A stretch of 42,012 bases of DNA from a virus (lineage: Duplodnaviria > Heunggongvirae > Uroviricota > Caudoviricetes): the IMG/VR virus record IMGVR_UViG_2563366969_000002. One strand, 5' to 3'. A program made the translations under genes and the position numbers. Below are positions 1-42,012 of this stretch, piece after piece. The notes below the pieces were generated by a model. It did no database searches. It worked only from the letters and a program-made list of their open reading frames with translations, and was not told where the DNA came from. How positions within the stretch are numbered: the first letter of the stretch is position 1; every line of letters starts with the position of its first letter.

Positions 1-1074
1 TCATTTGTCGATTTCAATTTTGTCCCATTCCCGTCCACGGCTGTCCCTATACCGCGCCGCCATTGAATATGATTTATGCCCGAGAAGACGTTGAGCAAAC
101 TTATCGCCAATCTGGTTCCGGTATAGCCTCGCTGACAGGCTACGCAGTTCATGGAATGTTGGCGGGTCTCCATCAAATGAGAGTCCAGATGCATTTCTCG
201 CCTTTGTAAAATACTTCGATACTGTTTTAGGGGAAAGCGGATCGTGATGCTTTGATGCGATTATAGTTTCACTGCCGCTGGCCTCCCTGCATTTCTGTAG
301 TGTATCAGCCAATGAGATATTGAGCGCGTCAATCGTTAGCGTTAGCGGAATGGCGAGCTTAGCCCCTGTTTTACTCTGTTCAATGTGAAGATGGTTGTCG
401 TTTATGTCTGACCATTTCATTCTGCACAAATCGCCCACTCTCTGCCCTGTAACGACCGCCAAATCCATTGCCAGCCTCAGCCAGATTGGGAGAGGTTCGG
501 CTGCATGGTAAATCGCGACATACTCATTAGCTGTCAGCCTTGAGCGCCTTACTTCTGACTTTGCTGTACGGGTTGCTGTTACCGGATTCGTTGCCACATG
601 CCCCTCGGCTATTGCTTCACGAAAAACGTCAACAAGGGTTGACCTGATTAATTTTGCGGAAGCTGCTTTACCTTCTGCTACGTAGGTGTTTAGCATTGCT
701 GCCACTTCTTTCGTTGATATGTCAGTGAGCGGTTTGTCCGGCAATTTTCTTCGGATTGCCCTGATTTTGCTGGCGTAGTCGAGTAGAGTTTTCGGCCTGA
801 TCCCCCTTTCGGTGAGGATTCTTTCATATCGGTCAAGCCACACATGAAGAGTGATTGCGTCACCGCCTTTAATTCTGTCTATCAGTGATTTGCGTCCGCT
901 GTCTGAGAGTAACTCAATATTGGCCTGTATTGCTTCAGTAATTGCTATCCTCCTGTCTCTGCCTAATCCGAACTCTTTACCCGTCCTTGGGTCCCTGTAG
1001 CAGTAATATCCATTGTTTCTTATATAAAGATTAGGGGGTAAATCCCGGCGCTCATGACTTCGCCTTCTTCCCAT
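1..1074 (-). CDS. int: Tyrosine integrase, lambda Int family
   Basis: 357-aa ORF; N-terminal arm-binding region MGRRRSHERRDLPPNLYIRNNGYYCYRDPRTGKEFGLGRDRRIAITEAIQANIEL and C-terminal catalytic region (HELRSLSARLY...LLGHKS...) match recalled lambda Int; central part diverged. Stop codon is at pos 1-3, so the gene is complete and the att site is outside the window. Confidence 0.95.
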   Translation of the reverse strand: MGRRRSHERRDLPPNLYIRNNGYYCYRDPRTGKEFGLGRDRRIAITEAIQANIELLSDSGRKSLIDRIKGGDAITLHVWLDRYERILTERGIRPKTLLDYASKIRAIRRKLPDKPLTDISTKEVAAMLNTYVAEGKAASAKLIRSTLVDVFREAIAEGHVATNPVTATRTAKSEVRRSRLTANEYVAIYHAAEPLPIWLRLAMDLAVVTGQRVGDLCRMKWSDINDNHLHIEQSKTGAKLAIPLTLTIDALNISLADTLQKCREASGSETIIASKHHDPLSPKTVSKYFTKARNASGLSFDGDPPTFHELRSLSARLYRNQIGDKFAQRLLGHKSYSMAARYRDSRGREWDKIEIDK

Positions 1075-3481: not shown

Positions 3482-3642
3482 ACCGCCTCCCGTTTATTAT
3501 TTATCTTCTCAGCCAGCCGCTGTGCTTTCAGTGGATTTCTGATAACAGAAAGGCCGGGAAATACCCAGCCTCGCTTTGTAACGGAGTAGACGAAAGTGAT
3601 CGCACCTACCCGGATATTATCGTGAGGATGCTTCATCGCCAT
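3454..3642 (-). CDS. Lambda orf61-like protein
   Basis: 62-aa [48 protein letters not shown]... matches recalled lambda orf61. Confidence 0.6.
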
Positions 3643-4313
3643 TGCTCCCCAAATACAAAACCAATTTCAGCCAGTGCCTCGTCCATTTTTTCGATGAACT
3701 CCGGCACCATCTCGTCAAAACTCGCCATGTAATTTTCATCCCGCTCAACCACGACATAATGCAGGCCTTCACGCTTCATCCGCGGGTCATAGTTGGCAAA
3801 GTACCAGGCATCTTTTCGCGTCACCCACATGCTGTACTGCACCTGGGCCATGTAAGCCGACTTTATGGCCTCGAAACCACCGAGCCGGAATTTCATGAAA
3901 TCCCGGGAGGTAAACGGGCATTTCAGTTCAAGGCCGTTGCCGTCACTGCATAAACCATCGGGAGAGCAGGCGGTGCGCATACTTTCGTCGCGATAGATGA
4001 TCGGGGATTCAGTAACATTCACGCCGGAAGTGAATTCAAACAGAGTTCTGGCGTCGTTCTCGTACTGTTTTCCCCAGGCCAGTGCTTTAGCGTTAACTTC
4101 CGGAGCCACACCGGTGCAAACCTCGGCAAGCAGGGTGTGGAAGTAGGACATTTTCATGTCAGGCCACTTTTTTCCGGAGCGGGGTTTTGCTATCACATTG
4201 TGAACTTCTGAAGCGGTGATGACGCCGAGCCGTAATTTGTGCCACGCATCATCTCCCTGCTCGATAGCTCTCACGTCGATCCCGGTACGCTGCAGGATAA
4301 TGTCCGGTGTCAT
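3633..4313 (-). CDS. exo: Lambda exonuclease (Red alpha)
   Basis: 226-aa [65 protein letters not shown]... matches recalled lambda Exo. Confidence 0.95.
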
Positions 4314-5095
4314 GCTGCCACCTTCTGTTCAGTGGCTTTTTGTTTCAGGAATCCAAGAGCTTTCACTGCTTCGTCCTGTGTCAGTTCTGACGATGAACGA
4401 ATGTCGCGGCGAAATATCTGGGAACAGAGCGGCAATAAGTCGTCATCCCATGTTTTATCCAGGGCGATCAGCAGAGTGTTAATCTCCTGCATGGTTTCAT
4501 CGTTAACCGGAGTGATGTCGCGTTCCGGCTGACGTTCTGCAGTGTATGCGGTATTTTCGACAATGCGCTCGGCTTCATCCTTGTCATAGATACCAGTAAA
4601 TCCGAAGGACAGACGGGCACACTGAATCATGGCTTTATGCCGTAACATCCGTTTGGGATGCGACTGCCACGGTCCGGTGATTTCTCTGCCTTCGCGGGTT
4701 TTGAATGGTTCGCGGCGGCATTCATCCATCCACTCGGTAACGCAGATCGGATGATTGCGGTCTTTGCGGTAAATCCGGCATGTGCAGGATTCGTTGTCCT
4801 GTTCAAAGTCCATGCCATCAAACTGCTGGTTTTCGTTGATGATGCGGGACCAGCCATCAACGCCCACCACCGGAACGATGCCGTTCTGCTTATCAGGGAA
4901 GGCGTAAATTTCTTTCGTCCACGGATTAAGGCCGTATTGGTTGGCGACGATCAGCAATGCGATGAACTGCGCATCGCTGGCATCGCCTTTAAATGCTGTC
5001 TGGCGAAGAGTGGTGATCAGTTCCTGTGGGTCGACAGAATCCATGCCGACACGTTCAGCCAGCTTCCCAGCCAGCGTTGCGAGTGCTGTACTCAT
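4310..5095 (-). CDS. bet: Recombinase Beta (Red beta)
   Basis: 261-aa [62 protein letters not shown]... matches recalled lambda Bet; overlaps exo start. Confidence 0.95.
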
Positions 5096-5100
5096 CCGTT

Positions 5101-5397
5101 TTATACCTCTGAATCAATATCAACCTGGTGGTGAGCAATGGTTTCAACCATGTACCGGATGTGTTCTGCCATGCGCTCCTGAAACTCAACATCGTCATCA
5201 AACGCACGGGTAATGGCTTTTTTGCTGGCCCCGTGACGTTGCAAATGATCGATGCAGAGCGATTCAAACAAATGCTGGGGCAGACCCTTTTCCAGGTCGT
5301 CTGCCAGTTCTGCCTCTTTCTCTTCACGGGCGATCTGCTGGTAGTGACGCGCCCAGCTCTGAGCCTCAAGACGATCCTGAATGTAATAAGCGTTCAT
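5101..5397 (-). CDS. gam: Gam (RecBCD inhibitor), 98-aa form
   Basis: [60 protein letters not shown]... matches recalled lambda GamS. Confidence 0.9.
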
Positions 5398-5472
5398 GGC
5401 TGAACTCCTGAAAATGGCTGTGAAAATAGCGCCCGCGAAATGCCAGGCTGATTAGGAAAACAGGAAAGGGGG

Positions 5473-5616
5473 TTAGTGAATGCTTTTGCTTGATCTCAGT
5501 TTCAGTATTAATATCCATTTTTTATAAGCGTCGACGGCCTCACGAAACATCTTTTCATCGCCAATAAAAGTGGCGATAGTGAATTTAGTCTGGATAGCCA
5601 TAAGTGTTTGATCCAT
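5473..5616 (-). CDS. kil: Kil (host-killing, FtsZ inhibitor)
   Basis: 47-aa reading frame [47 protein letters not shown] matches recalled lambda Kil; internal start within a longer listed ORF. Confidence 0.75.
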
Positions 5617-5749
5617 TTTTTGGGACTCCTGGCTGATTAAGTATGTCGATAAGGCGTTTCCATCCGTCACGTAATTTACGGGTGATTCGTTCAAGTAAAG
5701 ATTCGGAAGGGCAGCCAGCAACAGGCCACCCTGCAATGGCATATTGCAT
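5585..5749 (-). CDS. cIII: cIII (protects cII from FtsH)
   Basis: Hand translation gives [54 protein letters not shown], matching recalled lambda cIII (54 aa); below the ORF-track size cutoff. Confidence 0.75.
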   Translation of the reverse strand: MQYAIAGWPVAGCPSESLLERITRKLRDGWKRLIDILNQPGVPKNGSNTYGYPD

Positions 5750-5821
5750 GGTGTGCTCCTTATTTATACATAACGAAAAACGCCTCGAGTGAAGCGTTAT
5801 TGGTATGCGGTAACGCCGCGC

Positions 5822-6190
5822 TCAGGCGGCTTTGATAGTCATATCATCTGAATCAAATATTCCTGATGTATCGATATCGGTAATTCTTATTCCTTCGCTA
5901 CCATCCATTGGAGGCCATCCTTCCTGACCATTTCCATCATTCCAGTCGAACTCACACACAACACCATATGCATTTAAGTCGCTTGAAATTGCTATAAGCA
6001 GAGCATGTTGCGCCAGCATGATTAATACAGCATTTAATACAGAGCCGTGTTTATTGAGTCGGTATTCAGAGTCTGACCAGAAATTATTAATCTGGTGAAG
6101 TTTTTCCTCTGTCATTACGTCATGGTCGATTTCAATTTCTATTGATGCTTTCCAGTCGTAATCAATGATGTATTTTTTGATGTTTGACAT
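5822..6190 (-). CDS. ea10: Ea10 protein
   Basis: 122-aa ORF MSNIKKYIIDYDWKASIEIEIDHDVMTEEKLHQINNFWSDSEYRL... at the lambda ea10 position and length. Confidence 0.8.
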   Translation of the reverse strand: MSNIKKYIIDYDWKASIEIEIDHDVMTEEKLHQINNFWSDSEYRLNKHGSVLNAVLIMLAQHALLIAISSDLNAYGVVCEFDWNDGNGQEGWPPMDGSEGIRITDIDTSGIFDSDDMTIKAA

Positions 6191-6210
6191 CTGTTCATAT
6201 CCTCATAGAT

Positions 6211-6236: not shown

Positions 6237-6393
6237 AAAGAAGATTTCCAATAATCAGAACAAGTCGGCTCCTGTTTAGTTACGAGCGACATTGCTCCGT
6301 GTATTCACTCGTTGGAATGAATACACAGTGCAGTGTTTATTCTGTTATTTATGCCAAAAATAAAGGCCACTATCAGGCAGCTTTGTTGTTCTG

Positions 6394-6573
6394 TTAACCA
6401 AGTTCTCTGGCAATCATTGCCGTCGTTCGTATTGCCCATTTATCGACATATTTCCCATCTTCCATTACAGGAAACATTTCTTCAGGCTTAACCATGCATT
6501 CCGATTGCAGCTTGCATCCATTGCATCGCTTGAATTGTCCACACCATTGATTCTTATCAATAGTCGTAGTCAT
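6394..6573 (-). CDS. ral: Ral (restriction alleviation), 59-aa variant
   Basis: Hand translation MTTTIDKNQWCGQFKRCNGCKLQSECMVKPEEMFPVMEDGKYVDKWAIRTTAMIARELG* matches recalled lambda Ral but ends about 7 residues early. Confidence 0.7.
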   Translation of the reverse strand: MTTTIDKNQWCGQFKRCNGCKLQSECMVKPEEMFPVMEDGKYVDKWAIRTTAMIARELG

Positions 6574-6767
6574 ACGGATAGTCCTGGTACTGTTCCATTA
6601 CATCCTGCGGATGCTCTTCGAACTCTTCAAATTCTTCTTCCATATATCACCTTAAATAGTGGATTGCGGTAGTAAAGATTGTGCCTGTCTTTTAACCACA
6701 TCAGGCTCGGTGGTTCTCGTGTACCCCTACAGCGAGAAATCGGATAAACTATTACAACCCCTACAGT

Positions 6768-7322
6768 TTGATGAGTATAGAAATGGATCCACTCGTTATT
6801 CTCGGACGAGTGTTCAGTAATGAACCTCTGGAGAGAACCATGTATATGATCGTTATCTGGGTTGGACTTCTGCTTTTAAGCCCAGATAACTGGCCTGAAT
6901 ATGTTAATGAGAGAATCGGTATTCCTCATGTGTGGCATGTTTTCGTCTTTGCTCTTGCATTTTCGCTAGCAATTAATGTGCATCGATTATCAGCTATTGC
7001 CAGCGCCAGATATAAGCGATTTAAGCTAAGAAAACGCATTAAGATGCAAAACGATAAAGTGCGATCGGTAATTCAAAACCTTACAGAAGAGCAATCTATG
7101 GTTTTGTGCGCAGCCCTTAATGAAGGCAGGAAGTATGTGGTTACATCAAAACAATTCCCATACATTAGTGAGTTGATTGAGCTTGGTGTGTTGAACAAAA
7201 CTTTTTCCCGATGGAACGGGAAGCATATATTATTCCCTATTGAGGATATTTACTGGACTGAATTAGTTGCCAGCTATGATCCATATAATATTGAGATAAA
7301 GCCAAGGCCAATATCTAAGTAA
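6768..7322 (+). CDS. sieB: Superinfection exclusion protein B-like membrane protein
   Basis: 184-aa ORF with two hydrophobic segments (MYMIVIWVGLLLLSP, VWHVFVFALAFSLAINV), between ral and N, convergent with N as recalled for lambda sieB. Confidence 0.65.
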   Translation: MMSIEMDPLVILGRVFSNEPLERTMYMIVIWVGLLLLSPDNWPEYVNERIGIPHVWHVFVFALAFSLAINVHRLSAIASARYKRFKLRKRIKMQNDKVRSVIQNLTEEQSMVLCAALNEGRKYVVTSKQFPYISELIELGVLNKTFSRWNGKHILFPIEDIYWTELVASYDPYNIEIKPRPISK

Positions 7323-12415: not shown

Positions 12416-13435
12416 ATGTGTTATAGCAATGTTACAGATCGTGATCTTATGGGGCAAATTGCTACTAAATTAAATGACTATCGAAACCCTCCTCAAGGTG
12501 GCATGAGCATTGATCATGTTAATCGATGGATTAATCAATTTGAGTTAACCGATAGGCGATTTGTCTTAGAGGAAACGGACCGATTAATGGGGATTGGATA
12601 CTTCTCTGAGAGCGACTATCGCAGAGTTATTAGTAGTATCGCCAATGATGAGCAAAATGAAAGGTTCTTTCAAACCGCAGCGTTTCTCGATATCCAGAAC
12701 CAAGGCACCAGTCAATCTGAGTTTTTGGATTTGCTTCGAGAAGATTGTGTAGAAGAATTCAACGTTGTGACCAGACTGTCACAACGTCAAAGAGTTAGTT
12801 CATTCCGTGAATTTATTTACCTTGACGATGTTTCATTCTCAGGAGCTAAGGCAATCAATGATTTAACTTGGTTTATTGAGCACTTTGAACTCCAAAATAT
12901 TACAATATTGGTGTACTTTTTAGGCGGGCACACGTATTCAGCATGGAAGATAAAAAACCAACTTGAACGAAAATTTGCTGATAGGAATATTTCAGTTTGC
13001 GTTGGTGGTGGTGAGTTTGCAGTTGTTGAAAATCAACGCCGAAACAGTTCGAGTTCTGAGGTTTTTTGGCCAAAAGCGCAAAGTGTATCAATACCTGAAT
13101 GGGCTGACGGTCAAGTACATTATTTAGGAACATATCGTGACGGTTACGTCGCGAATAATTTTTTCCCTAATGAGCAGAGACGAGATCGTTTTGAAGCAAT
13201 TATGACAAAAGTTGGGTTTGATATCCTTGGTCAGAGTCAAAATCCTTCTGATGTTATAAAGCCTTTAGGCTTTTCAACTTTCAATGGTGTTGGGTTTGGT
13301 GGAACTATCTTTACTTTCAGAAACTGCCCCAATAATACCCCTCTAGCGTACTGGTGGGGAACTTATCTTCGAACGGGAAATAGAGCTCTGGATTGTTGGT
13401 ATCCACTTATGAAGCGTAATGTGTATAATCGGTGA
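12416..13435 (+). CDS. Unknown 339-aa protein, gene A of inserted two-gene module
   Basis: ATG at 12416 with AGGAA 6 nt upstream; AT-rich by eye; no confident family. Weak resemblance of FIYLDDVSFSGAKAI to the PRPP-binding loop of phosphoribosyltransferases (low confidence). Confidence 0.75.
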   Translation: MCYSNVTDRDLMGQIATKLNDYRNPPQGGMSIDHVNRWINQFELTDRRFVLEETDRLMGIGYFSESDYRRVISSIANDEQNERFFQTAAFLDIQNQGTSQSEFLDLLREDCVEEFNVVTRLSQRQRVSSFREFIYLDDVSFSGAKAINDLTWFIEHFELQNITILVYFLGGHTYSAWKIKNQLERKFADRNISVCVGGGEFAVVENQRRNSSSSEVFWPKAQSVSIPEWADGQVHYLGTYRDGYVANNFFPNEQRRDRFEAIMTKVGFDILGQSQNPSDVIKPLGFSTFNGVGFGGTIFTFRNCPNNTPLAYWWGTYLRTGNRALDCWYPLMKRNVYNR

Positions 13436-14049
13436 TCATGAGCTATAGACTATACCTGTTTCACAACACAGTTTCTTTCAGGAAAACCACCGAGAAATGG
13501 GGTGGTCTTTCCAACATGGCCAAAGGATATCCGCTCTTAGTTAATGGTATACCCATTCAATCGAGTGAAATTCTTTACCAAGCATGCCGATATCCAGACT
13601 ATCCAGATATCCAAAAGGCTATTATTACCCAAGGCAACCCTTATGAAGCTAAACAAACCGCCAGATCTTTCGAAGCCAAAACCCGTGCAGGTTGGGAAAA
13701 AAATCGAGTTTCGGTAATGAAATGGTGTGTCTGCGTTAAGCTTTGCCAGAACTGGGAATCGTTTTTCGCGCTCCTGGATAGCACAGGAGAGCATGACATT
13801 GTTGAGCACTCAGAGAAGGACCAATTTTGGGGGGCTAGTAAAGACTCCGAAGGTAACTTTTATGGTATGAACGTGTTAGGTCGTATCCTTATGGATGCGA
13901 GAGATGTTGCAAGAAAGAAGGGGCTTTCAGGGTTTGCTACGATACCGCCGCTACCCTTGGATAGGTTTCTTCTGCTCGGGGAGCAAATACGTGATGTTAC
14001 TTTCTCTCCACTACCGATGAATTCGGGGCAAAGCTTATCGCTTTTTTAA
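13432..14049 (+). CDS. NADAR / YbiA-like (DUF1768) protein, gene B of inserted module
   Basis: 205-aa ORF; start overlaps gene A stop (GTG 13432 in GTGA, or ATG 13438). Matches the recalled YbiA/NADAR pattern: SNM..(Y)..SSE.LYQA.....WE..RV.VM......K..QN.....LL.STG...IVEH...D.FWG......GN.LG.ILM..R. Confidence 0.7.
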   Translation: MIMSYRLYLFHNTVSFRKTTEKWGGLSNMAKGYPLLVNGIPIQSSEILYQACRYPDYPDIQKAIITQGNPYEAKQTARSFEAKTRAGWEKNRVSVMKWCVCVKLCQNWESFFALLDSTGEHDIVEHSEKDQFWGASKDSEGNFYGMNVLGRILMDARDVARKKGLSGFATIPPLPLDRFLLLGEQIRDVTFSPLPMNSGQSLSLF

Positions 14050-17036: not shown

Positions 17037-17840
17037 CTATTTCTTTTTGGGAAGTGGATACTTTAAGCTAACATTTTGAGTTTCTATATCTCGTGGCCCT
17101 CGAGTTTTATCATAAAAATACCAGATATTAAATTTTCTCTCAGTGTGCCATGTATCATATTGCAAGTGATCCCAGCCTAAATATGAAGCAACATAGTTTG
17201 ATACTCTTATTTTGGCTTCAGATGAAGCTTTTCCTTGATATGCGCACATAACCGCACCTAAGAAAAAATCGGCTAGCTGAATGTTTTCAGATGCTTTAGA
17301 GTCTTTTGTCACTACACTGCTGATTATCCCTTTACGACCAAATTTTCTATTCAATATGTTATTGGCAATAACATTTAGTTCTTCATCAGCCTTTTTATAA
17401 CGAGATGCGATAGGATCAACTTCAATCCTGAAGTAACTGTCTCTTTCAGGGTGTGCAGAAATTACAGAGCTAATTTTTGTGGTAATGAGATTTGTGAAGT
17501 GCTTTCTCCTTGCCAGGTCATAATCTCCATTATGAAATGCCTTATTTACTATTGATTTTTCAACCACGATACAATGAAAAGCTAGCCAAGGAACTCTAAA
17601 GAATAAGTCGATCAGCTCAAGATAAAATTCAGAGTATCTTTTTGAATGGGCTTTTTGCCATTTTATTTCTTCAAAAAAACCATGTTTTCTGCGTAGTTCT
17701 CTGATTAGTTGACAGAAATCCCCACGGCGTTGGTACTTCATCCACAGACTGCCAAAGCCGTAGAAACGTTGTCCATCAATGCCAGATTCATCGCAAGCAA
17801 TATGCCAAATTAACTTACCAATGTTATCTTTTTCTGTCAT
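17037..17840 (-). CDS. Unknown protein, possible DUF3800-like; antisense moron between late leader and lysis genes
   Basis: 267-aa ORF, AT-rich by eye, opposite to late transcription; N-terminal IWHIACDESGIDGQ resembles the DESG motif I recall for DUF3800 proteins (low confidence). Confidence 0.65.
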   Translation of the reverse strand: MTEKDNIGKLIWHIACDESGIDGQRFYGFGSLWMKYQRRGDFCQLIRELRRKHGFFEEIKWQKAHSKRYSEFYLELIDLFFRVPWLAFHCIVVEKSIVNKAFHNGDYDLARRKHFTNLITTKISSVISAHPERDSYFRIEVDPIASRYKKADEELNVIANNILNRKFGRKGIISSVVTKDSKASENIQLADFFLGAVMCAYQGKASSEAKIRVSNYVASYLGWDHLQYDTWHTERKFNIWYFYDKTRGPRDIETQNVSLKYPLPKKK

Positions 17841-19326: not shown

Positions 19327-19620
19327 TTATTGTGAGCAATACACACGCGCTTCCAGCGGAGTATAAATGCCTAAAGTAATAAAACCGAGCAATCCATTTA
19401 CGAATGTTTGCTGGGTTTCTGTTTTAACAACATTTTCTGCGCCGCCACAAATTTTGGCTGCATCAACAGTTTTCTCCTGTCCAATTCCCGAAACGAAGAA
19501 ATGATGGGTGATGGTTTCCTTTGGTGTTACTGCTGTCGGTTTGTTTCCAACAGTAAACGTCTGTTGAGCACATCCTGTAATAAGCATTGCCAGAGCGGCA
19601 GAAAACAACATTTTTTTCAT
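19327..19620 (-). CDS. bor: Bor lipoprotein (serum-resistance moron)
   Basis: From internal ATG: MKKMLFSAALAMLITGCAQQTFTVGNKPTAVTPKETITHHFFVSGIGQEKTVDAAKICGGAENVVKTETQQTFVNGLLGFITLGIYTPLEARVYCSQ, matches recalled lambda Bor. Confidence 0.9.
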   Translation of the reverse strand: MKKMLFSAALAMLITGCAQQTFTVGNKPTAVTPKETITHHFFVSGIGQEKTVDAAKICGGAENVVKTETQQTFVNGLLGFITLGIYTPLEARVYCSQ

Positions 19621-27112: not shown

Positions 27113-27593
27113 TTTTCAGCAGCCCGCGGAGATGCGCTTTAACCGCGCCCGTGTCCGGCGGGCGTTTATCACGATTGGGCAGCGTCATATGCGTGATGCC
27201 CGTCGGCTGGTGATACGCCGTGCGCGGTCGGCACCGGGTGAAAACCCCGGTTATCAGACCGGACGCCTGGCTCGTTCGATTGGTTACATGGTACCCAGAG
27301 CCAGTAAACATCGCCCTGGTTTTATGGCACGTATAGCCCCTAACCAGCGTAATGGAGAGGGAAACCGACGTATCACCGGTGATTTTTATCCGGCTTTTTT
27401 GTTCTATGGCGTGAGGCGAGGGGCAAAGCGTCGTCGCAGCCATCATCGTGGTGCATCCGGTGGCAGCGGCTGGCGACTGGCTCCACGTAATAACTTTATG
27501 GTGGAAACGCTTGAAAAGAACCGCAGCTGGACACGCTATTTTCTGGCGCGGGAATTACGTAAATCACTGAAGCCGGAGCGACGACGCAGATGA
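27087..27593 (+). CDS. HK97 gp10-like tail/neck component
   Basis: ATG 27087 with GGAGG upstream (listed ORF starts at GTG 27057); basic protein, synteny. Confidence 0.55.
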   Translation: MTTSFLHVDFQQPAEMRFNRARVRRAFITIGQRHMRDARRLVIRRARSAPGENPGYQTGRLARSIGYMVPRASKHRPGFMARIAPNQRNGEGNRRITGDFYPAFLFYGVRRGAKRRRSHHRGASGGSGWRLAPRNNFMVETLEKNRSWTRYFLARELRKSLKPERRRR

Positions 27594-28150
27594 AACTGAC
27601 GCCTGTTATTGCTGCGCTGCGTGCCCGCTGCCCGTATTTTGAAAACCGGGTGGCAGGCGCGGCACAGTTCAAAAATCTGCCGGAGGTCGGAAAGCTGAGA
27701 CTCCCGGCGGCGTATGTGGTACCGGGTGATGACTCTCCGGGAGAAAACAAAAGCCAGACCGACTACTAGCAGGAGCTGAAAGAGGGTTTCTCCGTGGTTG
27801 TCATACTGAGTAACGGGCGTGATGAGCGCGGTCAGTTTGCCTCGTATGATGTGGTGGACGATGTCCGGCAGATGCTCTTTAAGGCCCTGCTGGGCTGGAA
27901 CCCGGAAGCGTGCGGTAACCCGATTACCTATGACGGCGGCACGCTGCTGGATCTGAATCGTCATGAGCTGATTTATCAGTTCGATTTTTCGGTCATCAGC
28001 GAGCTGACCGAAGACGATACCCGCCAGCAGGATGATCTGAACAGTCTGGATGAACTGCAAACGCTGGCGATTGATGTTGATTATCTCGAGCCCGGTAACG
28101 GGCCTGACGGCGATATCGAACATCACACCGAAATAACCCTTCCTTCCTGA
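27590..28150 (+). pseudogene. Neck/tail-completion gene interrupted by in-frame TAG
   Basis: ATG 27590 (ATGA overlap with upstream gene) reads 59 codons to TAG at 27767-27769; same frame continues 27770-28150 (listed ORF from GTG 27794). Confidence 0.5.
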
Positions 28151-35849: not shown

Positions 35850-36894
35850 ATTTCAGCGCCCGACGCTGGCAGAAAATATCAGTATGCTCCGTAACGATTT
35901 ATTCGCCAGGCTGGACGTCAGCGACACGCTCCGGCGCATGGATGAAGACGTGCGGGCAAAGGTGTATGCGGCGGCGCTGCATACGGTCTACGGTTACATC
36001 GATTATCTGGCAATGAATATGCTGCCTGACCTGTGCGATGAGTCCTGGCTGGCGCGACATGCTGCGATGAAACGGTGTCCGCGCAAGGGAGCCACGGTTG
36101 CCAGCGGGTATATGCGCTGGGAAGGTGTCAGCGATGGCCTGAAGGTGACTGCCGGGAGTGTTATTCAGCGCGATGACCTGGTGCAGTACACGACAACTGA
36201 CGATGCAATCAGCTCCGGTGGTGTCCTGCGCGTGCCGATCGCCTGCTCAAGTGCAGGTGCGGTCGGTAACGCTGACGACGGTACGGCATTAATCCTGGTC
36301 ACGCCGGTGAATGGTCTGCCGTCTTCCGGTGTGGCTGACACCCTGACAGGCGGATTTGATACTGAAGAGCTGGAAACGTGGCGCGCCCGCGTCATTGAGC
36401 GGTATTACTGGACGCCGCAGGGCGGGGCTGACGGGGACTATGTCGTCTGGGCTAAAGAAGTGCCCGGCATTACCCGCGCATGGACATACCGTCACTGGAT
36501 GGGAACGGGAACTGTCGGTGTGATGATTGCCAGCAGTGACCTGATTAATCCCATTCCGGAAGAATCAACGGAAACGGCGGCAAGACAACATATCGGGCCA
36601 CTGGCCCCGGTGGCAGGCTCTGATTTGTATGTGTTCAGGCCGGTGGCACATACGGTGGATTTTCATATCCGCGTGACGCCGGACACACCGGAAATACGGG
36701 CTGCCATCACCGCCGAGTTGCGTTCGTTCCTGCTGCGTGATGGTTATCCGCAGGGAGAACTGAAGGTGTCGCGTATCAGTGAGGCGATTTCCGGTGCGAA
36801 CGGGGAATACAGCCATCAGTTGCTTGCACCGGCGGACAATATCTCCATTGCAAAAAATGAACTGGCGGTACTGGGGACGATTTCATGGACGTGA
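35836..36894 (+). CDS. Baseplate J-like protein (Mu gp47-like)
   Basis: 352-aa ORF, synteny and size. Confidence 0.8.
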
Positions 36895-37469
36895 CAAACG
36901 ATGATTACATCCATCTGTTGTCGGCACTGTTGCCCCCCGGTCCGGCATGGTCAGCCAGCGATCCGGCGATTGCCGGTGCGGCACCGTCATTAACCCGCGT
37001 TCATCAGCGTGCGGATGCCCTGATGCGGGAGCTGGATCCGCGCACCACCACTGAACTGATAAACCGCTGGGAGCGTCTGTGCGGCCTGCCGGATGAATGT
37101 ATTCCTGCGGGAACGCAGACCCTTCGCCAGCGTCAGCAACGGCTGGATGCGAAGGTTAATCTGGCGGGCGGCATCAATGAGGATTTTTACCTTGCACAGC
37201 TTGCTGCCCTGGGCAGACCAGACGCCACCATCACGCGATACGATAAAAGCACTTTCACCTGCTCATCTGCCTGTACTGACGCGGTGAATGCGCCGGAATG
37301 GCGGTATTACTGGCAGGTCAACATGCCAGCCGCCACCAACACCACCTGGATGACATGTGGCGATCCCTGTGATTCCGCACTGCGTATCTGGGGCGACACC
37401 GTTGTCGAGTGTGTGCTTAACAAACTCTGCCCTTCGCATACCTACGTAATTTTTAAATATCCGGAGTAA
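36885..37469 (+). CDS. Tail protein (Mu gp48-like)
   Basis: 194-aa ORF between baseplate J and tail fibre. Confidence 0.65.
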
Positions 37470-37472
37470 TCC

Positions 37473-38117
37473 ATGCATCGTATAGACACGAAAACCGCGC
37501 AGAAGGATAAGTTCGGCGCGGGTAAGAACGGTTTTACCCGTGGTAACCCCCAGACCGGCACGCCTGCCACCGATCTGGATGATGACTACTTTGACATGTT
37601 GCAGGAAGAACTCTGCAGCGTGGTGGAGGCATCCGGTGCCAGCCTGGAGAAGGGGCGGCATGACCAGCTGCTTACCGCACTTCGCGCGCTGCTGTTAAGC
37701 CGCAAAAATCCGTTTGGCGATATCAAAGCGGATGGCACGGTGAAAACGGCTCTCGAAAACCTTGGTTTGGGAGAAGCGGCAAAACGGAATGTGGGAACAG
37801 GTTCAGGTCAGATACCGGATATGAGTAGCTTTGCATCAGCACTCTCTTCGAGTGGCTACCAGAAATTACCTTCTGGACTAATTATTCAGTGGGGGGCGGC
37901 TGTTGCTGGAATTGGCAGCACTGGGGGTACAGGAAATGTAGTCTCATTCCCTGTTGCATTCCCCAGATATTGCGCCCAAATAATTACATCTTACGATAAT
38001 GGAAGCTCGTCAATCATTGCTGGTGCAGCAGGAAACCAAACTACCACTCAATTTCTTTTACGTTGTGGTGCAACCGGTGGTAGTTATAACTTCCGCTGGT
38101 TAGCCGTGGGGTATTAA
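37473..38117 (+). CDS. Tail fibre protein
   Basis: 214-aa ORF; Gly/Ser/Thr-rich C-terminal half; followed by tail fibre assembly gene. Confidence 0.75.
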
Positions 38118-38119
38118 TT

Positions 38120-38563
38120 ATGGATAACTACTATTTTTCACCTTCGACTTTGGCATTTTATCCTGAAGATCTCATGTTGTTATATGAAGCAGCAGGAACT
38201 TTACCTGATGATATTATTTCTGTGCCACATGAAATATTTGCTACTTATTCAGGAGAGCCACCACGAGGAAAAAAGCGAGGTACTACAGAAGATGGGCTGC
38301 CCACCTGGAGTAATCTGCCGCCTTTAAGTCATGAGGAAGAAGTTGAGGTTGCGGACGCCCAAAGACAGTTTCGTATTGATGAGGCGAACGACTACATGAA
38401 TAGTAAGCAATGGCCAGGTAAAGCCGCTATTGGTCGTCTGAAAGGCGAGGAACTGGCGCAATATAATTCGTGGCTGGATTATCTGGACGCACTGGAGCTG
38501 GTCGATACTTCCGGTGCGCCAGATATTGAATGGCCTACGCCTCCGGCAGTTCAGGCCAGATGA
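38120..38563 (+). CDS. tfa: Tail fibre assembly protein
   Basis: 147-aa ORF; C-terminal ...WLDYLDALELVDTSGAPDIEWPTPP matches the conserved Tfa C-terminal motif (VDTSxAPDIEWP). Confidence 0.8.
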   Translation: MDNYYFSPSTLAFYPEDLMLLYEAAGTLPDDIISVPHEIFATYSGEPPRGKKRGTTEDGLPTWSNLPPLSHEEEVEVADAQRQFRIDEANDYMNSKQWPGKAAIGRLKGEELAQYNSWLDYLDALELVDTSGAPDIEWPTPPAVQAR

Positions 38564-38864
38564 CATCCGGCGCGATGCTTGTATCTATTGCCGCCACCGC
38601 ATCAATGTAATCAAGCACAGCGTTAAGCCGAGCGGTTTCTGCCTGCGTCAATTTACGTCCGGCCTGTAATTTCAGTTGAATCAGACTGATGGAAGCCATA
38701 GCAGCATCAATCAGCGACTGGCGTGGTGACGAGAACAGTTGCATCTTACAACCGTATTTTTCTGGACAACTGTAGGATATACGGACCGGGATTTGGAAGT
38801 AGCGGCGGTAAACGAACAGGGATTTTCGATTTTTCATCATGTGTGTTCGGGTGGTTATCAGCAA
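38535..38864 (-). pseudogene. Inverted tail-fibre-assembly gene remnant (tfa')
   Basis: Minus-strand ORF whose last ~50 aa (…KLTQAETARLNAVLDYIDAVAAIDTSIAPDVIWPELPEA) carry the Tfa C-terminal motif; N-terminal part unrelated; 3' end overlaps tfa convergently. Confidence 0.45.
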
Positions 38865-39084
38865 TAACCGGCGTCGATGAAACTACAAACACTAGTATCG
38901 GTTCGCTGTTTGGTTCGGCGGAAAATAATAACACTGCTACAGGGAAGATGTCGGGATGTGCCATTCTGGTTCCATCTAACTCTTTCCAGCAGGTTGATGC
39001 AACCTTCAAAACAAGAGTGACATCAGGTTACACGAACCCTGGCGTGTATCAGTAAAAATGGGTGGGAATTACCCACCCTTACCA

Positions 39085-40734
39085 CTAGTTTACAGGGATG
39101 TTAATTATCTGAAGAGTTCCAGAAAGATCGTAAGTTCCCACCTCAATGTTTATAATATCGCCTTTGTTGATTGACTTCGCGGTCCAACTATAATCTGTTA
39201 GCTTTGTTGATTTGGGCCAGAAGTCAGTATAAACAGGTCGTTTTTCGCCTTTATAAGTAATTCTGAGATAAACTTTAGGACCCTGCTTGAAGTTATCGGA
39301 TGAAAGGTCATTATTCGTTTTAAGCACAATAAGGTCATTGCTTTTAGCAATATATATGCTTTCCAGAATAGTTTCCTTAGCTGGAATCATTGTCTTGCCA
39401 ACCTTGATTTCATTGGATTCGGGAAGCATGGAATAATCAAAAGTTGAGTTAGACTTTCTGATCCGCGAAACGCCGAAGTATTCACCATACGTATTCACCG
39501 AGTGGTACATATCAAACTTATCACCCTTCGACAGAAGTTTTGGGAAGTAAAAATCAGGGATCATGAAATCTTTTTTCCCCTGACGCTTCATTTCTGCAAT
39601 AACGCTCATGCGCACATCATTTTGCATGAATGCTGACTTATATGATTTGTACATGAAGTAATAGGACGGCGCGAAGTATGCTAACAGTATTGCAGCAAGG
39701 CCAGCAAAAAATAGCTTAATAGAAGTTCCGTGATAAGCCTGATTTAACGCAAAAGACATAGAGACAAGCATCAAAACCAGGGTTCCGTTGCCTGAGCGAG
39801 GCGGATACCCCGGAGCTGCAGCCATCATTGCTACAGAGAGAAGAGAGGCAGACAGGAACGCCGCTGAGCAAATGACCCTAGATTTCAACGTATCTTTCTC
39901 TACTGCATTCAAGCAACCCGCAAGCAGTGACACACCAATTATCAGCAGTGGTATCCATAGCATACCCATCATTTCTGGTGCGCGGCTATAAAAGTGCTCA
40001 TCAAGCCTGTCCACCATGGGTTTGTCATACCAATATGTAAAATACTTAGCTCGAGCAGCGTTCCCAGGAGATAGCACCAATATCGCATAACCAATGATGG
40101 CGCTGAATGAGTAGAAAGCAAATGAGTAGTTACGCTCTTTTTTAAGGAAATATCCAACAGCAAAGAAAATCGCTGGAGCTGCGACGGCAATAAAACCTGT
40201 ATTTTCATTTGAACATCCAGCAGCTAAGGCAAGGAGCAATGAAACAATAGACAAACTATACTTTTTATTAAAGTAATCTTTAAATATTGAAAGCAAGAAT
40301 AGGCATAGTATAACGTTGGTCCATAAGTAGTTCGCAGACCCAACCAACCAGAAGGTAGTTTGTCCTATGTTGGTATTTGATATCCAATATGTAAGGAAAA
40401 TAATTATGGATACAACAATGAACCCAGAACTCGACTGTTTATTTGTTGTGGTGTAACCGATTTTTGTTAAGCAAAATGTTAATAAAACTGGAGCCAGTGA
40501 ATTTATCGCCGCTCTGATGTAATGATTATCAATGAACAGTATAAATCCACTGATATAGTCAGCTATTACGCGCCCACTCCACGTAAAGTAGTGATTAATA
40601 TGGGATTCTAAACTTATTCCCTTCAATGCATATGCATAATCATCTGAATGCATTGGTGTATGCAATGCAATTCCAAGTGTTAATACATACATTAGAAGAT
40701 ATACAAGAGATATTTTTATCTTATCGACGTTCAT
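39085..40734 (-). CDS. Type-specific O-antigen glucosyltransferase (GtrC-like), polytopic membrane protein
   Basis: 549-aa highly hydrophobic ORF, AT-rich, directly downstream of gtrB; third gene of gtr cassette by synteny. Confidence 0.75.
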
Positions 40735-41650
40735 TTTTTATTCCTTTAATTATGTAACGTGGTCTTGATTTTACTTCGACATATATCCTGCCAATGTATT
40801 CACCAAGTACGCCAATACCTATCAACTGAATGCCACCAAGGAACAGAATAGACACAAGTAGTGATGGATAACCACGTACTGCATTACCGAATACCAGGGT
40901 GTCGAAAATCATCCAAGCTCCGTACAGAAACGATAATACAGCAACAATTAGGCCGATATAGGTCCACATGCGTAAAGGGACGGTAGAAAAGCTAGTGATA
41001 CCTTCAAGGGCAAGATTCCATAGTTTCCATCCATTGAATTTTGAATCGCCAGCAACACGCTCAGCGCGTGCATATTCCACTACATCGGTACGCCCGCCAA
41101 CCCAACTTAAAACCCCTTTCATGAAGAGATTTCTCTCAGGCATGAGCTTGATGTTCTCGACTACATCACGAGACATTAATCGAAAATCACCGACATTCTC
41201 TTCAATTTTTGGGTTGCTGATTTTGTTATGCAGTTTATAAAACCATTCGGCAGATTTTCGCTTCAAAGCGCTATCAGTTGAGCGGTCAGATCGCTTAGCC
41301 AGGACCATATCTGCTCCGCCCTGCCATTTCTCAATCAGATGAGGAATGACTTCAATCGGATCCTGAAGGTCAACATCAATTGGAATCACGGCATCGCCAG
41401 TTGCATGGTCTAACCCTGCAAACAATGCTGGTTCTTTACCAAAGTTGCGTGTAAATGACAGCGGAAAAACTAGCGGATCAGAAACAGCCAGAGCGTTAAT
41501 GATTGACTCCGTAGCGTCTTTGCTGCCGTCATTTATGAAAACAATTTCCACTTCATATGGCTTCAACTCTTCGAATTCACGTACCGTTTTATAGAAAATT
41601 GGTATCGCTTCTTCTTCATTGAAGACAGGAACGACCAGAGATATCTTCAT
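40721..41650 (-). CDS. gtrB: Bactoprenol glucosyltransferase GtrB
   Basis: 309-aa [51 protein letters not shown]... GT2-family; matches recalled GtrB. Confidence 0.92.
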
Positions 41651-42012
41651 TATTTCGCATCCCTAAAGACAATGAACTTTGAATAGACGAAACCGCACAC
41701 CAGGCTGATGGCGGAGAAGGTGACAAGAGTGACAATTGGAGGAAGTGAACATCTATCAGCAACCCACCCGACGACAACACTCAAGGTTCCCATGAATCCC
41801 ACATATAACAAGTAACGCATCGTTGTAGTCGATGCTTTGAATGTGAATTTTGCATTCGCGAAGAAGCTAAAGCTCACAGCTACTATGAAACCTGCGAAGT
41901 TTGCCAGAGCCTGATTGGTATGCGCGGCATAGATACATACACCAAAAACCACCCAGTGTATAAGTGTGTTCAGCACACCAATCGAGGTGTACTTTGCAAA
42001 TAGCTTTAACAT
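41650..42012 (-). CDS. gtrA: Flippase GtrA
   Basis: 120-aa [70 protein letters not shown]... near-identical to recalled GtrA; ATG at the last 3 nt of the window. Confidence 0.92.

Follow-up and report, generated by a model that had tools for sequence, protein, structure and literature searches.

A probable truncated tail-fibre inversion switch beside the gtr cassette of an SfV-like Escherichia coli prophage

A prophage end with two stray reading frames

Between the tail fibre assembly gene tfa and the O-antigen glucosylation (gtr) genes of the prophage analysed here lie two small open reading frames (ORFs), one of 109 aa on the minus strand, ending like a tail fibre assembly protein, and one of 110 aa on the plus strand, rich in Gly, Ser, Thr and Asn. 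The locus therefore raises the question of whether both frames are leftovers of a single invertible host-range segment, as the initial annotation proposed, whether they are small functional genes, or whether they are the trace of a recombination event that joined unrelated DNA. The window, that is the whole 42,012-nt stretch of DNA analysed, is a complete prophage with an integrase gene at one end (1-1074, minus strand) and gtrA at the other (41650-42012), and in E. coli SCU-485 and six further complete genomes the prophage site is the torS/torT interval. The prophage combines lambdoid early genes with an HK97-type head and a contractile, Mu-like tail and baseplate, an architecture that recurs in the Shigella serotype-converting phages SfV, SfI, SfII and SfIV, to which its DNA is 94-95% identical as far as the middle of the fibre gene. 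The tail terminator gene (27590-28150, plus strand) is interrupted in frame by a stop at codon 60 (of 186 codons), likewise flagged by PGAP as 'internal stop' in SCU-485, so that the prophage is probably defective and, barring read-through of this stop, probably cannot assemble tails.

Some features of the early and accessory regions differ between records. The exo (3633-4313) and bet (4310-5095) ORFs are intact in the window, whereas exo, bet, gam and several neighbours are annotated as frameshifted in the SCU-485 record, and the position-by-position comparison of the two breaks down over the first ~11 kb owing to early-region indels, for which the explanation would be either indel errors in the SCU-485 assembly or the derivation of the window from a different one of the seven strains. 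By the SCU-485 annotation, accessory genes occupy window positions 12416-14049 (plus strand), 17037-17840 (minus strand) and ~19330-19620 (minus strand), and comprise a phosphoribosyltransferase-like protein with a NADAR protein, a DUF3800 protein and the serum-survival lipoprotein gene iss; a HipA-family kinase and DUF3037 pair lies near the SCU-485 repressor. These accessory genes are possible defence or virulence cargo.

Fibre gene, lone crossover site and inverted chaperone stub

The left part of the locus comprises the following features:

37473-38117, plus strand: tail fibre gene, 214 aa, with a Gp53-like_C domain in the variable C-terminal tip (Pfam PF21882, E 1.1e-16)
37750-37775, minus strand: 26-bp Din-family invertase crossover site, TTCTCCCAAACC AA GGTTTTCGAGAG, identical at 26 of 26 positions to pixL of e14
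38120-38563, plus strand: tfa, the intact 147-aa tail fibre assembly chaperone of the expressed tip (Pfam Caudo_TAP, PF02413, E 1.4e-26, profile positions 4-130 of 131)
38535-38723, minus strand: tfa' stub, 189 nt, the last 62-63 codons and stop of an inverted second chaperone gene, a pseudogene (tblastn, Pfam, PGAP)
38724-38864, minus strand: spurious N-terminal 46-47 codons of the 109-aa ORF, antisense read-through across the tailspike stub and not part of a gene

The fibre gene is intact and frozen in one orientation. Its N-terminal part, to about 37800, is common to SfV, SfI, SfII, SfIV, Escherichia phage SKA5 and K-12 yfdL; DNA identity to SfV, SfI and SfII ends near 37826 and divergence from SKA5 begins near 37801, so that the relatives start to diverge 25-50 nt downstream of the crossover site. 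The site itself, located by alignment to SKA5 followed by a pattern search, lies within the fibre reading frame at the boundary of the constant and variable parts, where it codes for ..LENLGLGE.., and it matches the Din-family consensus. It is the sole pixL-identical match in the 42 kb, none being expected by chance according to shuffles, it holds the only perfect copy of the AAACCNNGGTTT core in the 42 kb, and it equals the left site of SKA5 at all 26 positions. The pixL sequence of the e14 Pin system is tabulated in PMC3241671 (Table 3).

A complete switch is found in SKA5, which shares the baseplate and fibre module with the window and whose locus (L006) contains:

4074-4721, plus strand: fibre gene
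4724-5164, plus strand: tfa
5136-5729, minus strand: tfa'
5729-6190, minus strand: alternative fibre tip (S'v), with a Collar domain
6267-6830, plus strand: serine invertase, with Resolvase and HTH_7 domains and a match to the Gin structure 3uj3 at E 1e-56

The inverted repeat of SKA5 spans 4358-4377 and 6181-6200, giving two sites in inverted orientation, and in silico inversion between their central dinucleotides fuses ..ALENLGLGE in frame to the alternative tip to yield a 251-aa fibre. Din invertases require two inverted sites on one supercoiled domain together with a Fis-bound enhancer, which in the known systems lies at the 5' end of the invertase gene. Among the loci compared, those with an invertase (SKA5, 606R2) have two inverted sites, whereas those lacking one (the window, SfIV, SfV and K-12 CPS-53) have a single site. 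No second 26-bp crossover site occurs in the 42-kb window, and a general repeat search over 36800-39300 gave no convincing inverted-repeat pair. The absence of an invertase, remarked upon in the initial annotation, was confirmed by tblastn with the SKA5 invertase (best E in the window 1.9) and by the annotation of the whole SCU-485 prophage, in which neither an invertase nor a resolvase is listed; tblastn with the SKA5 S'v likewise revealed no alternative tip in the window (best E 2.1, outside 38720-39055). Of the two convergent pairs of tip and tfa that make up a switch, the window keeps one pair intact (Sv and tfa), lacks S'v and retains only the last 62 codons of tfa'.

The locus resembles the e14 P segment with its invertase Pin (of the Din family, which includes Gin of Mu, Cin of P1, Hin of Salmonella and Min of p15B) in its pixL-identical site at the constant/variable boundary and in its convergent tfa and tfa' with their 29-nt overlap; the complete system, with a Gin-like invertase, is present in the close relative SKA5. 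Unlike the Din systems, it has one site and no alternative tip, invertase or enhancer, so that the window's switch would be unable to invert. The initial annotation had held that absence of any inverted-repeat pair would speak against an invertible segment; one site and no pair were found, yet this standard was too strict, since a single site is what is expected of a truncated switch. Its reading of a decayed host-range segment stands for the fibre, tfa and tfa', on the strength of the pixL-identical site and the intact switch of SKA5.

The description of the minus-strand ORF in that annotation, as a frame with a Tfa-like C-terminus and an unrelated N-terminus that meets tfa tail to tail, also proved accurate. 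tfa matches Caudo_TAP over its full length and the inverted copy does not: within the 109-aa ORF (38535-38864) the domain covers residues 47-108 only, corresponding to profile positions 71-131 of 131, and residues 1-46 have no Pfam match. When the 197-aa SKA5 tfa' was compared with the window by tblastn, only residues 136-197 aligned (92% identity, E 1.7e-32, at 38723-38538). The N-terminus of the ORF is considered unrelated because homology to Caudo_TAP and to SKA5 tfa' is limited to the C-terminal part; the same DNA, 38724-38864, is tailspike-homologous on the plus strand, and DNA alignments to SKA5 and to K-12 tfaS lose identity to the right of 38723. The tail-to-tail overlap of tfa and tfa' measures 29 nt (38535-38563) and is identical in SKA5, SfIV, 606R2 and K-12 CPS-53, and in the identical locus of SCU-485 PGAP records the stub as a pseudogene 'missing N-terminus'.

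The stretch that encodes the C-termini of tfa and tfa' (window 38400-38723) is a conserved island with ~90% DNA identity across SfV-like, P2-like, e14-like and Klebsiella phages. It is present in 724 of 5426 E. coli genomes, with differing sequences on either side, and because of this breadth of conservation it is an obvious candidate for an anchor and probably serves homologous recombination in fibre-tip swapping. The two C-termini were also considered as a long functional DNA inverted repeat and rejected, as only 16 nt at 75% were found.

Tailspike stub, terminator and gtr cassette

To the right of the tfa' stub the window contains:

38720-38723, no strand: deletion/replacement junction, GGCG
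38720-39055, plus strand: 3'-terminal stub of a P22-like tailspike, ~110 codons and a TAA at 39053-39055 (protein and DNA homology, synteny)
39060-39078, minus strand: intrinsic terminator hairpin, GGGTGGG-TAATT-CCCACCC then ATTTTT (terminator scan)
39085-42012, minus strand: gtr O-antigen glucosylation cassette (Pfam, PGAP)
39085-40734, minus strand: serotype-specific transferase gene gtrC, DUF6056/GT_STM0557_N (Pfam PF19528, E 2e-62)
40721-41650, minus strand: gtrB (PF00535 on the same-length gene of contig L010)
41650-42012, minus strand: gtrA (PF04138 on the same-length gene of contig L010)

The plus-strand ORF aligns without gaps to residues 699-807 of the 807-aa tailspike of a prophage in E. 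coli NCTC11121 (75 of 109 positions, 69% aa identity, E 2e-50) and shares its stop. By tblastn the match extends left to 38720, only residues 697-807 of the tailspike having a counterpart in the window, and in E. coli genomes a sensitive DNA search paired 38766-39018 with genes that carry the annotation 'phage head-binding domain-containing protein'. The NCTC11121 tailspike carries a Head_binding domain (E 2.8e-66), whereas the stub lacks both the N-terminal head-binding domain (PF09008) and the central beta-helix. The fibre-tip-like fragment that the initial annotation placed at 38865-39055 thus exists, and it forms the C-terminal end of a receptor-binding protein, but that protein is a P22-like tailspike and not a fibre, and the homology begins at 38720-38726 and not at 38865.

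The surroundings of the full-length relatives agree with this assignment. The P22-like prophage of NCTC11121 has arc/mnt/ant-type genes upstream of its tailspike and, ~30 nt past it, a convergent gtrC-gtrB-gtrA cassette followed by intS and tRNA-Arg. Two viral contigs (L014, L016) hold full-length ORFs of 807 and 822 aa whose C-terminal ends are 70-73% identical to the stub, and in both a convergent three-gene gtr cassette lies ~30 nt from the tailspike end; in two further loci (L005, L015) another convergent gene takes this place, annotated as an acyltransferase in L005 and equal in size, as a 195-aa ORF, in L015. C-terminal homology, a shared stop and convergent synteny with an O-antigen modification gene are therefore combined in NCTC11121, L014 and L016. 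The window resembles the right end of such P22-like prophages (tailspike convergent with gtrC-gtrB-gtrA, then attP and int) in gene order, orientation, the ~30-nt gap with its hairpin and the tailspike C-terminus, and differs in that its tailspike is reduced to the final 14% and is joined directly to the tail-fibre region of a myovirus.

Of 5426 complete E. coli genomes, seven have the tailspike stub, and these are exactly the seven that have the gtrC gene. Tailspike homology, synteny and this shared distribution together argue that 38720-39055 is the 3' end of a podovirus tailspike travelling with the gtr genes. The podoviral origin of the tailspike-gtr block is suggested by family-level homology and synteny, because the closest full-length tailspikes are only 69-73% identical. 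A tblastn search with the 110-aa fragment against 50,697 phage records gave no match even at E 1, a scan of a species-representative genome collection returned no relative and hence no donor, and a protein word-index search of a 5.8-billion-protein collection returned only two short products on short contigs, one an identical copy of the locus (L010) and the other a 988-nt contig without useful context (L011). As far as our searches show, a tailspike stub joined to a gtr cassette within a myovirus has no existing annotation. L010 (ENA metagenome contig ERZ1755391 NODE_4026) is identical to the window from 38853 on, including the aligned stretch from tailspike to terminator, and its positions 1-45 are an untrimmed Nextera transposase adapter (..AGATGTGTATAAGAGACAG) in a public assembly, which produces the false start of a 72-aa protein.

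The hairpin stands between the tailspike stop and the convergent stop of the gtr-specific gene, where it is the predicted end of the gtr operon, and NCTC11121 has an analogous hairpin in the same place. A GtrA flippase-like protein, a GtrB bactoprenol glucosyltransferase and a serotype-specific transferase are encoded in one operon at the prophage end, PGAP naming genes in the cassette yfdH and yfdG. The gtr genes are likely the only active genes at this end of the prophage.

The two homologies meet within four bases: by tblastn that to tfa' reaches 38723 and that to the tailspike starts at 38720, and a three-way DNA alignment places the junction at the same position. The GGCG common to both ends was read from relatives in place of the actual parents, and an agreement over 4 nt may be fortuitous. 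G+C content is 57-59% in the constant part of the fibre gene, 39-47% over the variable tip and the tfa N-terminus and ~53-55% at the conserved tfa/tfa' ends, from where it steps downward across the scar to 46% in the tailspike stub and 35-40% in gtrC.

Origin of the scar and its relatives

According to the above comparisons, the locus very probably represents the left half of a tail-fibre inversion switch of the Pin/Gin type, served by a Din-family serine invertase and truncated by one illegitimate recombination. The ancestral layout would have been that of SKA5, in which the constant part of the fibre is followed by one site, by Sv and tfa, by the convergent tfa' and S'v, by the second site and by the invertase. 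Of this layout, the left site would have survived with Sv, tfa and the final 62-63 codons of tfa', and all that lay further right (the remainder of tfa', S'v, the second site, and the invertase together with the enhancer inside it) would have been replaced by a block from a P22-like podovirus, consisting of the last ~110 tailspike codons, the convergent-gene terminator and the gtrA-gtrB-gtrC(DUF6056) cassette. A single illegitimate join at 38720-38723, with GGCG as microhomology, could account for this arrangement. Because its right part (S'v, site and invertase) would have been replaced, the switch could no longer invert in the cell, and the fibre would be fixed with the Gp53-like tip and the tfa that matches it; the stubs of tfa' and of the tailspike would be non-functional leftovers, and the 109-aa minus-strand and 110-aa plus-strand ORFs chance frames across the scar. 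The truncation may have taken place in an ancestor or in a different phage, from which it was then inherited by recombination.

The alternatives differ mainly in what they make of the two frames. That both leftovers belong to one decayed invertible segment, with the Gly/Ser/Thr/Asn-rich fragment as the alternative tip S'v, is suggested by the position of 38720-39055, a receptor-binding protein C-terminus just beyond tfa', where S'v lies in SKA5. However, the fragment is on the plus strand, and S'v must share the strand of tfa'; it matches the final 109 residues and stop of 807-822-aa P22-like tailspikes bearing a head-binding domain, has no similarity to the SKA5 S'v and strictly co-occurs with the gtrC gene. 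The initial claim that this third fragment was part of the switch falls with these observations, since it is a tailspike 3' end on the wrong strand that arrived with the gtr cassette, and the S'v reading, extremely improbable, is effectively refuted. It is also very improbable that the 109-aa ORF is a functional chimeric chaperone or the 110-aa ORF a functional small protein, even though both frames are open, three of the seven identical records have a 'hypothetical protein' entry over the matched stretch, and in K-12 an annotated small toxic protein, yodE, occupies the space separating gtrC from tfaS. The minus-strand ORF would start at TTG, lacks the N-terminal two thirds of Tfa and is a pseudogene for PGAP, and the plus-strand ORF lacks 86% of the tailspike, head-binding and catalytic parts included; the 5.8-billion-protein collection offers only the two short products mentioned above, one of them from the identical copy, and YodE has no similarity to the stub stretch.

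Two further possibilities concern the switch itself. A lone site that is a perfect pixL might recombine with the pix sites of another prophage through that prophage's Pin-type invertase, and the second place in SCU-485 that matches the tfa' query means that another tfa/tfa' locus may exist in the host; such use in trans is nevertheless hardly credible, as the local arrangement is the same in all seven genomes and Din invertases generally need two sites in the same domain. Between sites hundreds of kilobases apart Din recombination has a very low efficiency, and its products would be inversions of large chromosome segments. An unlikely reading that nonetheless carries some weight is that this lineage never had a working switch, and that the tip, tfa and an already truncated tfa' were imported together from another prophage by homologous recombination. 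Exchange would then have taken place in the constant part of the fibre and at the tfa/tfa' C-termini, both of them conserved, the latter being shared so widely among phage groups and E. coli genomes, and the fall in G+C over the variable tip and tfa N-terminus is consistent with such an import. Importation, however, alters where the truncation happened and not what the structure is, and the tfa'/tailspike junction was found only alongside this gtr cassette, which argues for truncation and gtr arrival as one event. A wider conjecture, that the lone pixL is still cut by another prophage's Pin-type invertase and that the tailspike 3' end, terminator and gtr genes form a recurrent cassette moving between podoviruses and myoviruses, is a long shot; if cutting in trans did occur, it would allow occasional exchange of fibre tips between prophages or the inversion of large chromosome segments.

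Truncation of an inversion switch, the preferred reading, places the window in a graded series of decay:

SKA5: switch intact
SfIV: full tfa', then an insertion sequence
K-12 CPS-53: tfaS stub of 303 nt
This window: tfa' stub of 189 nt
SfV: tfa' absent

K-12 CPS-53 (KplE1), with the order yfdL, yfdK, tfaS (pseudogene), yodE and yfdI/yfdH/yfdG, has in common with the window the tail module family, a lone pixL-identical site, tfa, an inverted truncated tfa' adjoining a gtr cassette and the lack of an invertase, but differs in the length of its stub, in its junction and filler DNA, in having yodE in place of the tailspike stub, in its gtrC type and in its attachment site, argW. The yodE gene (4498-4644 in the CPS-53 locus, L012), annotated as encoding a small toxic protein, sits between the gtr-specific gene and the tfaS stub; YodE was considered as a related tailspike stub and dropped, with no DNA similarity to the window and no match in phage records. 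The tfa'-type relic is therefore of an already known kind, annotated as tfaS in K-12, and no new mechanism is involved. In SfV, SfI, SfII and SfIV the Mu-like module of baseplate and fibre recurs with 94-95% identity as far as the crossover site, and there too a gtr cassette follows immediately at the end of the prophage; unlike the window, none has the tailspike stub. In the SfIV genome paper ORF-22 is described as a 'unique additional tail fibre assembly protein', possibly affecting host range, and no link to an inversion switch is made (PMC3851460). By comparison of the SfIV locus (L001 4120-5798, gp22-gp24) with the switch of SKA5, ORF-22 is a full-length inverted tfa' that an insertion sequence separates from its tip and invertase, a relic of the kind seen here but less far decayed, and the 'extra tail fibre assembly protein' of SfIV can be reinterpreted accordingly.

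Decayed and shuffled fibre inversion regions are common, as work on Mu, P1, p15B and e14 illustrates. The present locus is an ordinary evolutionary scar of this sort, whose two stray ORFs can be explained as scar tissue, of use for annotation and for the reading of phage mosaicism. The lone crossover site has been kept unchanged in the invertase-less relatives SfV, SfIV and K-12 CPS-53. As a small addition to what is known of module exchange among serotype-converting phages, the locus would provide a base-level junction for a gtr serotype-conversion cassette that appears to have moved, with a piece of tailspike attached, from a P22-like podovirus background into an SfV-like myovirus.
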